The notes beneath the pieces were generated by a model, which was not told the DNA's origin, ran no database searches, and saw only the letters and a list, made by a program, of their open reading frames with translations. From a virus (taxonomy: Duplodnaviria; Caudoviricetes), in the IMG/VR virus record IMGVR_UViG_3300035502_000313, positions 64,001 to 128,000 of that record: 64,000 nucleotides of DNA. One strand, written 5' to 3'. Every line of letters begins with the position of its first letter. The first letter of the stretch is position 1. A program made the position numbers and the translations under genes. Below, piece by piece: positions 995 to 47,270 of the stretch.

Positions 995-995
995 A

Positions 996-1037
996 TAAGT
1001 AGAGATAGAATTAGACTATCCTTTGAACAGCTACTTA
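996..1037 (+). ncRNA. conserved bulged 5'-leader hairpin (partial copy of the 26992/46302 leader)
   Basis: TAAGTAG-A-GATAG-loop-CTATC-CTTTGAACAG-CTACTTA; same architecture and similar bulge sequence as at 26993 and 46304. Confidence 0.6.
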
Positions 1038-1111
1038 AAGTCCAGTTCATGACAATAAACCGAGCGTCATACGAAATAAGCCATGTTTCAAAATTTAAGG
1101 AGGAAACAAAA

Positions 1112-2602
1112 ATGAAAGTACGTAAAAATAATATGTCAGACAACAGCAGCACGGAGATTATGAAAAGGATATTTAATAACTTCCTTACATCCGATAGAAG
1201 TTTAATGACCTTTGTTGTTAAACAGGGAAGGAACGATTTCTATGTAGTCATGATAGTAAAGGATGTTGTTGGAGCTAAATACTCTGTTCATCCTGAAGAC
1301 ACAGTCTTTACCTTCGTAGCTCCATTACGTGTATATGGAACACGAAAAATGAAGACTAAATCAAATCATGTTATCAAAGTCCATGTTAATGGTAAAATCG
1401 GAACCATTAACAGTGATGATATATATGAAATCAGCACTCAGAATCTGTTTAAAGATTACTGTTACATATGTAATCTTTCCAAGTCCGATACAAAGAGTGC
1501 CGTAACAGCATTCATAAATTCATCTGCATGGTCAGAGAATGGAATATCTAATGCTGACTTCAATGAAAATGACTTCGAGTCTATCGATGCAGTTAAGATG
1601 ATGCTGTCTGACGAAGAAGAAGTCACAACCGAGGTCGATCAGGAAGTATCTGAAGTAATAGAGGCTGAATATGAAGAAATCTCAACTGAGGTTGCTGAGC
1701 CTGATACAATGTCTGATGAAGACAGAATCCTTGAAGCGTTTATGAATGAGAAATTTGTGTCAGAGCAGATTATCAATATTCATAATGAAATGCTTGACAA
1801 TCTGATAATTCCACCGGATGAAGTTCTTGACTTTATGAAAAGAGCTGATTCCAACTGCAATTATCTGCAGTCATTGCAGGAAAATGAGAAACAGCTTATT
1901 GATTCTCATAAAGTGACAATCGATTCTATCAGTGATCTTAGAGATAAGATAGAGTCTCTTAAAACTAAGCTTACTGAGCTTGAGGCGATATCTGAGAAAG
2001 AAGAATCTCTTGATATTGGACTTAAGAAATCAATCGTTGATATTAAATCCAACGTTGAAACAGATATCCGTAAACTCAACTCATTTATGGAATCTGCAAA
2101 GAGAGAAAAGGCTGCTTCAGAAATGCGTAATCGTATAGACAGTATGCTTAGTGGACTTTCTAACGATGAGGCAGAGTATCTCAGAAGCAAACTTGGAATT
2201 AGTAGTACTCCTGCTATTGAAATGAAGACTTCTGAAATCGTTATCACTGACGGTGCTTGTGTTAGTGACAACGCAAACGGATATTCATGGGCAGAATACA
2301 AATCACATATCGTGGATGTTTGCCAGGGACATTCTCTCCCTAGCAAGCTTGTATTCAAGGCATTGGCTGATGTAATTAAAAATGGCATGACTCATGCTAC
2401 ATTGGCTGATAAACTCAATAGTGTACATTATGCTAACAAAGCTATTGAGTTCTGCAGAAAGTATGGCTATCTTCCTGAGAAGAAGAAATATGCAAAGCGT
2501 AGAGTTTCTTCAGATCAGATAAAAAATAGAGGCAAAGCCATCACTACAAATTCCAAGAAGAGAAAGGAAGCTATCGAAATGGCTTTCAACTCTAACAAGT
2601 AA
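1112..2602 (+). CDS. hypothetical protein with acidic region and coiled coil (putative early gene)
   Basis: ORF 1049..2602; start moved to ATG 1112 behind AAGGAGG; heptad-like segment around aa 280-370. Confidence 0.75.
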   Translation: MKVRKNNMSDNSSTEIMKRIFNNFLTSDRSLMTFVVKQGRNDFYVVMIVKDVVGAKYSVHPEDTVFTFVAPLRVYGTRKMKTKSNHVIKVHVNGKIGTINSDDIYEISTQNLFKDYCYICNLSKSDTKSAVTAFINSSAWSENGISNADFNENDFESIDAVKMMLSDEEEVTTEVDQEVSEVIEAEYEEISTEVAEPDTMSDEDRILEAFMNEKFVSEQIINIHNEMLDNLIIPPDEVLDFMKRADSNCNYLQSLQENEKQLIDSHKVTIDSISDLRDKIESLKTKLTELEAISEKEESLDIGLKKSIVDIKSNVETDIRKLNSFMESAKREKAASEMRNRIDSMLSGLSNDEAEYLRSKLGISSTPAIEMKTSEIVITDGACVSDNANGYSWAEYKSHIVDVCQGHSLPSKLVFKALADVIKNGMTHATLADKLNSVHYANKAIEFCRKYGYLPEKKKYAKRRVSSDQIKNRGKAITTNSKKRKEAIEMAFNSNK

Positions 2603-19838: not shown

Positions 19839-20897
19839 TTAGTAATACAGATAATATGTGATATCAATTCCCTTAGAATAATCAATAAGAGCTTCGTTAG
19901 GGAAGTTGAATCTAGTGAATGGTCTAATATCAGCATACATAAGTTCATCATTCTTAAGATAAGGAATTGCTGTACACAATGAAATAGTATTAATCTTAGA
20001 ATCATTGTTTCCTACAGAACGATTGAAATATTCTCTACAATCAGATGCAGAAACACTCATCTTAAGTTTTACAACAACTTCACCCTCAGATGAACGCTTA
20101 TCTTTCCATACATCATCTACAGCTTCAAGACCTGTACTATCATCAGCATACTGACGAATAAGGATAGGATCCTCATCAAATGTCTTAAAGAAGTATCCAA
20201 TTGCATTGTTTGTCTGCATACGTCCAAAGTACTGTTTTCTATATGTAGTAGACAAATCAGCATCTGTTGTTCTATACTTAAATGGAATCAAACATGTTAA
20301 ATCACCACTATTAGATGTAGGATATGTATTGTTACCACCAGTACCATCATTGTAATCCCAATAACCATATGGTGCAATCCATTTAGTATTATGAACCTTG
20401 AATACACGAGATGCTTCGATACCACAACCATCGATACCTACACACCATAGACAAACACGACGTGCTACATGTCTATATAATGTATGTGCTGAATGATCAT
20501 CAATACTAAGACTCTTAAATGGTGTTAGCATACTATTCTGACCACTTTCACCAGTATAGAATGTATAGCCAACACTACTAGAGAAATCATCCATAGAGAT
20601 TGGAACTTCTACACTATCAGGTGTCTTAAATGATTTAGAAGCAGCTTTAAATGCAGCATCATAGCTAGGAATAGATTCAAGATAATCAACATCACCAACA
20701 AAGTTATCATAATCGAAATCTTTAATTGCATTGAACTCAGAACCAGAAATAATTACTTTGTTACTTCCACGAAACAAAACCTTTCCGCTGTCAAGTGACT
20801 TAAGAATAATATCAGTACCTTTGATGTTAGCTCCATCACTTTTAAGGATATTACCTTTTCCAGCATTATCATCAAAGATTTTAAGTTGTTTATTCAT
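19839..20897 (-). CDS. putative virion (baseplate-region) protein
   Basis: Last gene of late operon downstream of the 1611-aa protein; ends DITYYLYY; function inferred from context. Confidence 0.5.
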   Translation of the reverse strand: MNKQLKIFDDNAGKGNILKSDGANIKGTDIILKSLDSGKVLFRGSNKVIISGSEFNAIKDFDYDNFVGDVDYLESIPSYDAAFKAASKSFKTPDSVEVPISMDDFSSSVGYTFYTGESGQNSMLTPFKSLSIDDHSAHTLYRHVARRVCLWCVGIDGCGIEASRVFKVHNTKWIAPYGYWDYNDGTGGNNTYPTSNSGDLTCLIPFKYRTTDADLSTTYRKQYFGRMQTNNAIGYFFKTFDEDPILIRQYADDSTGLEAVDDVWKDKRSSEGEVVVKLKMSVSASDCREYFNRSVGNNDSKINTISLCTAIPYLKNDELMYADIRPFTRFNFPNEALIDYSKGIDITYYLYY

Positions 20898-26889: not shown

Positions 26890-26977
26890 TTTACTTACCT
26901 CCTTAACAAGTTGATATTACTAAATAGTTGAGGCTTGAAGAATTGATATATAATTTGTAAAAGTCATAATAATTGAA

Positions 26978-26994
26978 TATATATAATACAAGTG
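26978..26994 (+). promoter_or_regulatory. putative early promoter
   Basis: TATATATAAT-ACAA-GTG. Confidence 0.65.
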
Positions 26995-27140
26995 AGTAAG
27001 AGATAATTATAAGATTATCCTAGAATGGCTTACTTGGTCTTAGCTCTAAAAGACCTTTAAAAATTAGGGCAGTTGTTAATACATAAAATGGCATTGCTGA
27101 TATCGGAACAGTCGCAATGCCTAAAACCTATGTTCCATCG
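26992..27140 (+). ncRNA. conserved structured leader RNA, copy A (bulged hairpin plus two H-type pseudoknots)
   Basis: Homologous to 46302-46470 with compensatory base changes; see findings. Confidence 0.7.
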
Positions 27141-27161
27141 TATGTACTAGGAGGTACTATT

Positions 27162-27518
27162 ATGACAGACGTAAATAAAATAAACAACACAACAACTACA
27201 GCATCTGAAACAGAAACGAGAAAAAAAGCGGAGGAGTCCATCGACAAGTGGGCTAGTGCTGTTGTCGATCATAAAGTAAAGACAACAGTTGATGAAAAAA
27301 TTAAAGAAGTTGTAGGCGATATTGAGGCTACTGTTAAGGCAGCCATTGGCGATATTAAAACAAAAGTAGGTGATGCGAAAATAGAGGTAAATCCGACTAT
27401 AAATATCACAGTAAATCCGTCAATAACAGTTGGTGGAAACATATCGATTGATGAAAGGAGGATTGATAACGATTTAGACTCCTTTGCAAAACTTCTTGAA
27501 ATCATCGCAAAAAAATAA
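27162..27518 (+). CDS. hypothetical protein (early cassette cargo)
   Basis: ATG 27162 after AGGAGG; the track start 27117 lies inside the leader pseudoknot. Confidence 0.7.
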   Translation: MTDVNKINNTTTTASETETRKKAEESIDKWASAVVDHKVKTTVDEKIKEVVGDIEATVKAAIGDIKTKVGDAKIEVNPTINITVNPSITVGGNISIDERRIDNDLDSFAKLLEIIAKK

Positions 27519-27522
27519 AGAT

Positions 27523-27556
27523 AAGAAACGCCGTATTACCAACGGCGTTTCTTTTT
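27523..27556 (+). terminator. intrinsic terminator (related to 46754 and 47236 terminators)
   Basis: AAGAAACGCCGT/ACGGCGTTTCTT plus T-tract. Confidence 0.8.
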
Positions 27557-46220: not shown

Positions 46221-46287
46221 ATTTCATTTATCCTCCTTTCATTAGTGTATTTAATATTATGTTTTTGTAAAACTAAATTATTTTAGA

Positions 46288-46304
46288 TATATATAATATA
46301 AGTG
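46288..46304 (+). promoter_or_regulatory. putative early promoter
   Basis: TATATATAAT-ATAA-GTG. Confidence 0.65.
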
Positions 46305-46470
46305 AATAAGAGATAGATATAAGTCTATCCTTGAACAGCTTATTCTCTAGACTACAATAGTCTAGATTTGGTCTAGCTCTAAGACCGTAATAAAATTGAG
46401 CGATTTAAATAAGTTAAAATGCATTGCTGATAACGGAACAGTCAACAATGCTTAAATTCTATGTTCCATT
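46302..46470 (+). ncRNA. conserved structured leader RNA, copy B (bulged hairpin, extra hairpin, two pseudoknots)
   Basis: Homologous to 26992-27140; inserted perfect hairpin TCTAGACTA-CAA-TAGTCTAGA at 46346-46366. Confidence 0.7.
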
Positions 46471-46488
46471 AAAGTACAGGAGCTTATT

Positions 46489-46755
46489 ATGAAAACAACA
46501 ACTATGACAACAATAACAGCGGGCAATGTAATATTAACAAAGGATATCTTACAGTATCACTGGGATAAGAATCTTGGTGGTTATATGTTAATATTAACAA
46601 ATGAAGGTATAACAATAACAGATAGAGAAGACGGAGAAATTCAGTTTGATCCGTCATTTGATAGAGACGAACTTACTAGAAAGATTCGTCAGTCTGTTAG
46701 ATGTAATTGGGAAGACGCAAAATTTTATGCGTCTTACTATACAAGAAATATTTAA
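46489..46755 (+). CDS. hypothetical protein (early cassette cargo)
   Basis: AGGAG RBS; no visible similarity to the 27162 ORF despite the shared leader. Confidence 0.65.
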   Translation: MKTTTMTTITAGNVILTKDILQYHWDKNLGGYMLILTNEGITITDREDGEIQFDPSFDRDELTRKIRQSVRCNWEDAKFYASYYTRNI

Positions 46756-46787
46756 AAGAAGGCGTGCATAAAGCACGCTTTCTTTTT
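46754..46787 (+). terminator. intrinsic terminator
   Basis: AAAAGAAGGCGTGC/GCACGCTTTCTTTT. Confidence 0.8.
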
Positions 46788-47235: not shown

Positions 47236-47270
47236 AAAGAAACGTGCTAATTAAAGCACGTTTCTTTTTT
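47236..47270 (+). terminator. intrinsic terminator
   Basis: AAAGAAACGTGCT/AGCACGTTTCTTT plus T-tract. Confidence 0.8.

Follow-up and report, generated by a model that had tools for sequence, protein, structure and literature searches.

The early genes of AR9/PBS1-type jumbo phages are transcribed by an injected RNA polymerase and, to our knowledge, almost nothing is known about the stabilization, translation and shut-off of the resulting mRNAs. In Firmicutes, 5'-terminal stem-loop stabilizers (e.g., those of ermC, aprE and phage SP82) are hairpins at the 5' end, with a stem starting within ~4 nt of it, that protect the mRNA, need no particular sequence and contain no pseudoknots. The leader of T4 gene 32 includes an H-type pseudoknot that is the nucleation site for a translational repressor in the autoregulation of a single gene, and type III antitoxins (ToxI, CptI and antiQ) are tandem, nearly identical repeats of 34-45 nt adjoining the gene of an endoribonuclease toxin. 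The PeSL cassettes of T4-type phages consist of an early promoter and a stem-loop around variable ORFans and mark indels and replacements (PMC2839356, PMC4122927). For AR9, published work describes early promoters of the virion RNA polymerase with the consensus AAATATATATTAT-N6-G, in which G is the start, as well as long 5' UTRs of early genes with a predicted, uncharacterized early-UTR motif (PMC5312081).

The two leaders and their predicted early promoter

The window analyzed here comprises 64,000 nt (bases 64001-128000) of a viral record that is 212,182 bp long and bounded by direct terminal repeats. It contains two homologous, non-coding leaders, A (26992-27161) and B (46302-46488), each located between a predicted phage early promoter on the 5' side and a ribosome-binding site on the 3' side and followed by an ORF that is closed by a terminator. 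The leaders are ~74-80% identical to each other and share a 23-nt core with two exact occurrences in the window, where none is expected; the ORFs behind them (118 aa and 88 aa, respectively) are mutually unrelated. The first-pass annotation had described homologous non-coding blocks at 26992-27140 and 46302-46470 in front of unrelated ORFs, and all of its details were located as described, except that the blocks do not end just before the ribosome-binding site: the leaders reach the start codons at 27162 and 46489, and the last ~25 nt include a small hairpin around the Shine-Dalgarno (SD) sequence. Leaders A and B are very probably members of a multi-copy family of structured 5' untranslated leaders that belong to an early-gene cassette.

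In front of every leader copy, T(A/G)TATATAAT is followed after four bases by GTG; a TTGTAAAA box, present in many copies and missing in some, lies 17 nt upstream of this core. The predicted early promoter of leader A occupies 26955-26987 (+), with the upstream box TTGTAAAA at 26955-26962 and the core TATATATAAT at 26978-26987, and that of leader B occupies 46265-46297 (+), with the same box and the core at 46288-46297. The window core TATATATAAT-N6-G is identical to the AR9 early consensus in 9 of 10 bases, and a sigma-70 scan of the window did not pick out the leader promoters. The promoter is predicted to be an early promoter of the AR9 type, for the virion RNA polymerase. Given the alignment of the core to the AR9 early consensus, transcription would start on the third base of GTG (G26994 and G46304). 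Placed in this way, by analogy with the AR9 consensus only, the predicted +1 coincides with the base at which pairing in the 5' hairpin begins. The original assignment of the leader start to the early +1 is supported with respect to the promoter context, and the position is probably 2 nt further downstream than assumed. The AR9 early transcripts (PMC5312081) resemble those of the leaders in the promoter core and in the G, the predicted start here, six nt beyond it.

In the genome of the window (G000), the same type of promoter also heads other structured leaders, namely those at 19943 (+), 139647 (-), 10589 (-), 180474 (-) and 142655 (-), and at ~15219 (-) of the window. One compact type, GAUAGGA...UAUAAAGA...UCCUAUC-SD, has the GAUAG/CUAUC helix in common with the 5' hairpin of leaders A and B and contains an inner hairpin that covaries (AGAG/CUCU vs GCAG/CUGC). 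Another leader behind this promoter contains a different H-type pseudoknot, with stem GGAGU/ACUCC, loop UGAGGG, linker UUAAA and the partner strand CCCUCA.

Fold and covariation

The leader is a real structured RNA under RNA-level selection, as the first-pass annotation had maintained. In the 28-sequence model alignment, to which the second pseudoknot (PK2) was added and which was used for the tool pair count, 85.1% of the cells are paired compared to 75.6% in shuffles, 19 of the 36 pairs change on both sides compared to 10.2 ± 1.4 in shuffles (none of 500 reaches the observed value), and the covariation score is 0.191 compared to at most 0.065 with slid partners. In an anchor-based swap test, the strands of all seven helices pair better with their own partners than with those from other copies (the observed value is attained in 0-24 of 2000 permutations); the copies are mutually related, so that both the shuffle and the swap tests overstate independence. 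MAFFT alignments of the modules were mis-registered and were left out of the pair counts. The two hairpin stems and the two pseudoknot pairings are backed by covariation, as are the bulged 5' hairpin and the SD hairpin. Taken alone, leader A has an unremarkable minimum free energy (z-score -0.99). All three modules of the original description, namely a bulged hairpin with compensatory changes followed by two pseudoknots, are present with every stem, loop and partner strand that it had listed.

Module 1 is the bulged 5' hairpin, and its fold is supported by covariation. In leader A (26994-27035, +), the outer stem (26994-27000/27029-27035) encloses an inner stem GATAAT/ATTATC (27002-27007/27014-27019) with the loop TATAAG (27008-27013) and a 3' bulge (27020-27028). 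In leader B (46304-46345, +), the outer stem is at 46304-46310/46339-46345 and the inner stem is GATAGA/TCTATC (46312-46317/46324-46329), with the same TATAAG loop. The outer stems are GAGTAAG/CTTACTT in A and GAATAAG/CTTATTC in B, and the bulges are CTAGAATGG and CTTGAACAG, respectively. A K-turn was considered for this bulge, which contains a conserved GA; however, by eye, the GA is set apart from the outer helix by 3-4 extra bases, a spacing that does not match K-turn geometry. In leader B only, a 21-nt insertion between modules 1 and 2 (46346-46366, +) forms an extra 9-bp hairpin that a simple scan scores as terminator-like. It is followed directly on the 3' side by UUUGGUCU and could be an attenuator in that single leader.

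Module 2 contains the first H-type pseudoknot (PK1). In leader A (27036-27070, +), the stem GGTCTT/AAGACC (27036-27041/27050-27055) is combined with a loop helix in which GCTCTAA (27043-27049) pairs with TTAGGGC (27064-27070; GGGC at 27067-27070) across an A-rich linker. In leader B (46370-46401, +), the stem is GGTCT/AGACC (46370-46374/46382-46386) and the loop GCTC (46376-46379) pairs with GAGC (46398-46401). The stem shows changes from G-C to A-U between copies. In the loop helix, the core GCU:AGC is invariant, the fourth pair changes from C-G to A-U in L070 (GCUC:GAGC to GCUA:UAGC), the fifth from G.U to U-A in copy A (GCUCUAA:UUAGGGC) and the sixth from G-C to A-U in copies A and B, so that PK1 is supported by covariation; its own partners outperform swapped ones, with 1 of 2000 permutations reaching the observed value.

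Module 3 contains the second H-type pseudoknot (PK2), which is likewise supported by covariation, though more thinly than PK1. In leader A (27090-27136, +), the stem 27090-27101/27111-27121, including GCATTG/CAATGC, carries a loop in which GGAACA (27105-27110) pairs with TGTTCC (27131-27136), the latter overlapping the conserved CTATG (27128-27132). In leader B (46421-46467, +), the stem is at 46421-46430/46442-46451 and GGAACA (46435-46440) pairs with TGTTCC (46462-46467). All 11 pairs of the stem vary among the copies (GGCAUUGC, ACAUAU, AUCAAUAUA, GUCAUACG and others). The 6-bp loop helix is 100% paired in 19 sequences, with a single clean compensatory event, from A-U to G-C, in L330 (GGAACA:UGUUCC to GGAGCA:UGCUCC). 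In a short class of leaders, the PK2 helix is kept as a plain hairpin, GGAUC/GAUCC, which the same CUAUG precedes. Amid these covarying stems, three patches are invariant: the GAUAG/CUAUC helix, CUAUG and GGAACA.

A fourth element, overlooked in the first reading, is a small hairpin that presents the SD sequence in its loop. In leader A (27144-27157, +), GTAC and GTAC flank the loop TAGGAG, and the SD sequence AGGAGG is at 27149-27154. The stem differs between copies (GUAC/GUAC, AAUUC/GAAUU, AAAC/GUUU), and the stability of the hairpin exceeds that obtained when the flanks are shuffled (mean z -1.1, p = 0.001).

Three other features were considered and rejected. CsrA-type GGA loops do not apply, given that the module 2 loop of copies A and B lacks GGA and the loops are engaged in pseudoknots; a small uORF from the AUG in CUAUG has frames and stops that are not conserved among the copies; and the in-frame ATG at 27117 has no ribosome-binding site, is buried in a stem and lacks a counterpart in copy B. 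As for the xrRNA-like roadblock against RNase J put forward in the first-pass annotation, which would require a ring-like fold around the 5' end, the secondary structure gives a plain bulged hairpin and H-type pseudoknots, and nothing in it indicates such a fold.

Similarly to the ermC, aprE and SP82 stabilizers, the leader has a hairpin at, or within a few nucleotides of, the (here predicted) 5' end and a strong SD sequence downstream; unlike in those stabilizers, the inner helix and bulge are conserved in sequence and two pseudoknots follow. The T4 gene 32 leader, likewise at the 5' end of a phage mRNA, resembles it in the order of an H-type pseudoknot, an A/U-rich stretch and the ribosome-binding site, whereas the leader described here is present in multiple copies in front of unrelated genes and combines two pseudoknots with a 5' hairpin.

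Distribution and modular use of the leader

The genes adjacent to the leaders lead to related phage contigs of ~212-238 kb. At the syntenic site of one of these (L017), a diverged copy of the leader with compensatory changes is seen by direct reading. BLAST searches of related loci with the leader missed diverged copies, and only a covariance model found them. The covariance model used for the search for copies (R1) detects two full and two partial copies in the window's own genome (window 995-1114 and genome 44615-44730); among the relatives, G003 has seven copies, G001 has four (three strong and one weak), G002 one and G004 four, and no convincing copy was found with R1 in the more distant G005-G010. 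With additional copies recovered from metagenome assemblies using a specific three-part pattern, the family comprises 28 distinct full leaders on about ten contigs, with 1-7 copies per genome in related uncultured AR9-like phage contigs of 212-219 kb. Thus, the scan of the genome and its relatives that the first-pass annotation proposed yields further copies with covariation, and its count of two copies is superseded by a partial third copy in the window, a fourth elsewhere in the genome and the 28 distinct leaders in relatives.

A second model built from the 28 sequences (R2) reached no further than R1; it gave matches in G005 and G008, of which the latter is weak and located in a coding sequence. 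Two loose IUPAC scans of IMG/VR each returned more than 100 chance matches and together one new copy (L187), and the exact core motif had no match in IMG/VR. A BLAST search of the leaders against INPHARED (50,697 phage records) likewise gave no match. Neither AR9 nor Staphylococcus phage PALS_2 contains a copy according to the covariance model, a 22.9-bit match in AR9 being a chance hit inside a gene. Since the motif is missing from these cultured relatives, no experimental system carries the leader, and the family is known from uncultured phages only. A diverged look-alike is present in G006 (L073:1481-1641, -) behind a ATATATTATAAT promoter, with only 21 bits in R1 and no match in R2. It has an outer stem AGCGU/ACGCU and an inner stem UGAUAU/AUAUCA with a 3' bulge, followed by AGUC/GACU with a UUAAAAC linker and by a hairpin, CACUG/CAGUG, the loop of which can pair just downstream.

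A scan of the whole window against Rfam 15 at the gathering score gave no match, including to preQ1, SAM-II, fluoride and guanidine-III, and three leaders searched at E <= 10 matched no family beyond chance snoRNA and miRNA hits (E 0.3-7). The family is new, being absent both from Rfam 15, in agreement with the original claim, and from the published work searched.

The modules are used in several combinations. The partial copy at 995-1114 (+) of the window (45.9 bits in R1 and 51.9 bits in R2) retains an intact module 1, with outer stem AAGUAG/CUACUU, inner stem GAUAG/CUAUC and bulge CUUUGAACAG, and the remainder is remodeled; it precedes a 496-aa ORF (1112-2602) and a long run of plus-strand genes, not a one-gene cassette. 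The other partial copy (G000:44615-44761, +; L043/L369) consists of the same promoter, module 1 and the beginning of module 2; the longest ORF behind it has 20 aa, and the unit apparently has no ORF. The occurrence of module 1 alone at an operon and in an apparently ORF-less unit suggests that it is a general 5'-end element. The short class of leaders, found in G004 and others, is devoid of the module 3 hairpin.

This modularity bears on the possibility that the pseudoknots form a small-molecule aptamer, i.e., a riboswitch that governs translation of the downstream gene. H-type pseudoknots with A-rich linkers near an SD sequence recall the architecture of the preQ1-I, SAM-II and fluoride riboswitches, and base pairing between UUCC in the 3' strand of PK2 and GGAG in the SD sequence is conceivable. 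Nevertheless, no Rfam riboswitch model matched even at E <= 10, no pathway is common to the downstream genes, and modules are lost (in the short class), inserted (in copy B) or used alone (at window position 995), which aptamers rarely tolerate. A direct test gave no support for an SD-sequestering switch based on a UGUUCC...GGAGG helix, given that this anti-SD:SD helix does not exceed versions with shuffled spacers in stability (mean z +0.33, n = 27). Both the loss and insertion of modules and the lack of selection for the sequestering helix make a small-ligand riboswitch quite improbable. The independent use of module 1, the dispensability of the module 3 hairpin and the insertion in copy B argue against a single ligand aptamer; a string of semi-independent elements fits better. 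A protein-sensing leader is possible.

The early cassette and the proposed function of the leader

At every full copy, the promoter, leader and SD sequence are followed by an unrelated ORF and a terminator, whereas the L043 unit apparently has no ORF. The cassette is monocistronic and often opposed in orientation to its neighbors, and in the full copies a strong SD sequence and the ORF are at a fixed short distance. The cargo ORFs of the window, A (27162-27518, +; 118 aa) and B (46489-46755, +; 88 aa), belong to no known family in Pfam, PHROG or PADLOC. Cassette A ends with a terminator hairpin at 27523-27553 that is common to the convergent endolysin gene, and a hairpin at 46762-46778 lies downstream of ORF B. 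A suspected paralogy of the 567-aa and 570-aa convergent neighbors was dismissed, one being the endolysin and the other a GroEL-like chaperonin; the best cultured relatives of the latter are AR9/PBS1 and Staphylococcus jumbo phages, at ~25-27% identity.

The cassette terminators fall into two conserved families, one with a GGACUUUACAUCC core and the other with ACGUGC...GCACGU, so that conservation by module seems to extend to the 3' ends of the cassettes. In the first family, the GGACU(U/C)UACAUCC core is accompanied by covarying outer stems. Terminators are located at 27523-27553, 46762-46778 and 47236-47267 in the window and at the cassette ends of L049, L050, L055, L060, L061, L063, L064 and L070.

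Comparison of related genomes reveals exchange of the cargo. At the site between a 245-aa gene and the endolysin gene, the leader is followed by three different cargo ORFs in G000, G003 and G001, and the whole cassette is absent in G002 and G006. The nearest relative of each copy is found in its own genome or, for G001 and G002, in a closely related one, and the mean leader identity is 81% within genomes compared to 69.5% between them (58-79% for syntenic copies). The locus thus combines a conserved promoter and terminator, variable genes at sites of indels and replacements, and concerted copies, as in mobile cassettes of the PeSL type. As in the PeSL cassettes of T4, a promoter and terminator stem-loops bracket ORFans, many units are present per genome, and insertion, deletion and replacement occur between close relatives; the differences are the ~165-nt leader with covarying helices and two pseudoknots and the predicted promoter of the AR9 virion RNA polymerase instead of sigma-70.

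These observations raise the alternative that the leader is only a DNA-level repeat, a PeSL-like recombination cassette whose conservation is unrelated to RNA folding. The swapping of cargo, the presence or absence of the cassette at syntenic sites, the concerted evolution of copies within genomes and the conserved terminator families are all compatible with this explanation. However, compensatory changes maintain pairing in five helices and both pseudoknots, which DNA homology does not predict, so that a repeat conserved for recombination alone is highly improbable.

One relative carries a cassette with an identifiable cargo, a 369-aa protein of the AIPR family (PF10592, E 4.9e-20; L066:1667-2773, +, in G003), which is of the abortive-infection type and indicates that the cassettes do carry conflict genes. 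This cargo, together with the presence of short H-type pseudoknots, with A-rich linkers between them, in an RNA predicted to be expressed early, is what speaks for an explanation put forward in the first-pass annotation, namely that the leader mimics ToxI, CptI or antiQ and, as a decoy antitoxin, neutralizes a host abortive-infection endoribonuclease. The likeness extends to small pseudoknotted RNAs with A-rich junctions and to the role of type III antitoxins in phage-host conflict. Unlike in those systems, there is neither a tandem array nor a toxin gene: Tandem Repeats Finder detects no tandem direct repeats in leaders A and B, PK1 and PK2 are unlike in size and sequence, no Rfam family is matched, no ToxN/AbiQ-like ORF lies beside any copy, searches of the cargo ORFs against Pfam and PADLOC gave no toxin, and the leader, apart from the apparently ORF-less L043 unit, is always joined to a translated ORF. 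Given the lack of tandem repeats and of a toxin gene, the decoy explanation is unsupported and, in our estimate, extremely improbable.

The L043 unit, in which the promoter, module 1 and the first part of module 2 are apparently followed by no ORF, would also be in line with a leader that is cleaved from the mRNA or builds up as a stable small RNA, resistant to nucleases and acting in trans, the role in the mRNA being secondary, and compact pseudoknots can block exonucleases. With a strong SD sequence and an ORF at a fixed short distance behind every full copy, and with no target complementarity found, such a trans-acting small RNA is very improbable.

The modular pattern and the disfavored SD-sequestering helix leave a leader acting in cis as the best-supported reading. 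The best explanation overall, which is held tentatively and at somewhat below an even chance, is a new modular family of structured leaders that reside in portable early cassettes and act in cis. Under this hypothesis, an AR9-type early promoter and a leader of ~140-190 nt would precede a variable small ORF, and an intrinsic terminator would complete this four-part cassette. The RNA would start on the first paired base of the bulged hairpin, continue through two H-type pseudoknots and the SD hairpin, and influence the mRNA of which it is part. Early transcripts might be shielded from 5'-end-dependent decay (of the RppH, RNase J or RNase Y type) by the flush 5' hairpin together with the compact pseudoknots, and the leader might keep the ribosome-binding site accessible, in a defined context. 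Protection against 5'-3' decay would fit a hairpin flush with the predicted 5' end. Such a stabilizing and translational mechanism, inferred from the layout of the leader, is conceivable, with a probability well short of even. A pure stabilizer would need neither invariant sequences nor two pseudoknots, which counts against this mechanism. At the DNA level, the conserved promoter-leader and terminators would permit exchange of cargo by recombination.

The invariant patches hint at an additional, trans-acting partner, and GAUAG/CUAUC, CUAUG and GGAACA may also dock such a factor in a leader that acts in cis. If this were the principal role, the leader would be an operator for a trans-acting regulator, either a phage or host RNA-binding protein or anti-SD small RNAs of the phage itself, that switches all early cassettes off (or on) at a defined time. 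The invariance of these three patches next to freely covarying stems, the reappearance of the GAUAG/CUAUC helix in other leader types behind the same promoter and the sequence flavor common to all copies of a genome are compatible with an operator, and an SD sequence in a hairpin loop would be a good target for C-rich RNA loops; the same genome holds a small RNA with CAUGAUUUCCUC and UUUUCCUC motifs. On the other side, no candidate protein has been identified, the complementarity of the small RNA is generically anti-SD and not specific to the leader, and the likeness of copies within a genome is equally explained by gene conversion. An operator is therefore possible but on the unlikely side. 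The small unit itself is located at ~162040-162180 (-) of G000, and its two motifs are complementary to SD and start regions such as GAGGAAAUCAUG.

A broader version, clearly unlikely at present, is that the leader serves as a common address tag for a post-transcriptional regulon spanning the whole phage, with a genome-specific factor (a phage protein, anti-SD small RNAs or a defense-related nucleotide signal) docking on the invariant helix and pseudoknots, such that all swappable early accessory genes would be timed or gated together. If true, this would be a new class of RNA control device for early genes of jumbo phages.

For the AR9-like phages, the leader, reused up to seven times per genome before interchangeable ORFans, offers a concrete candidate element for the protection or timing of early mRNAs, and it marks cassettes of fast-evolving accessory genes that probably function in host takeover or counter-defense. 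As a structured RNA family that Rfam lacks, it is new, its known sequences suffice for a seed alignment, and it extends the PeSL idea of portable regulatory cassettes to a phage lineage very different from the T4-type phages.
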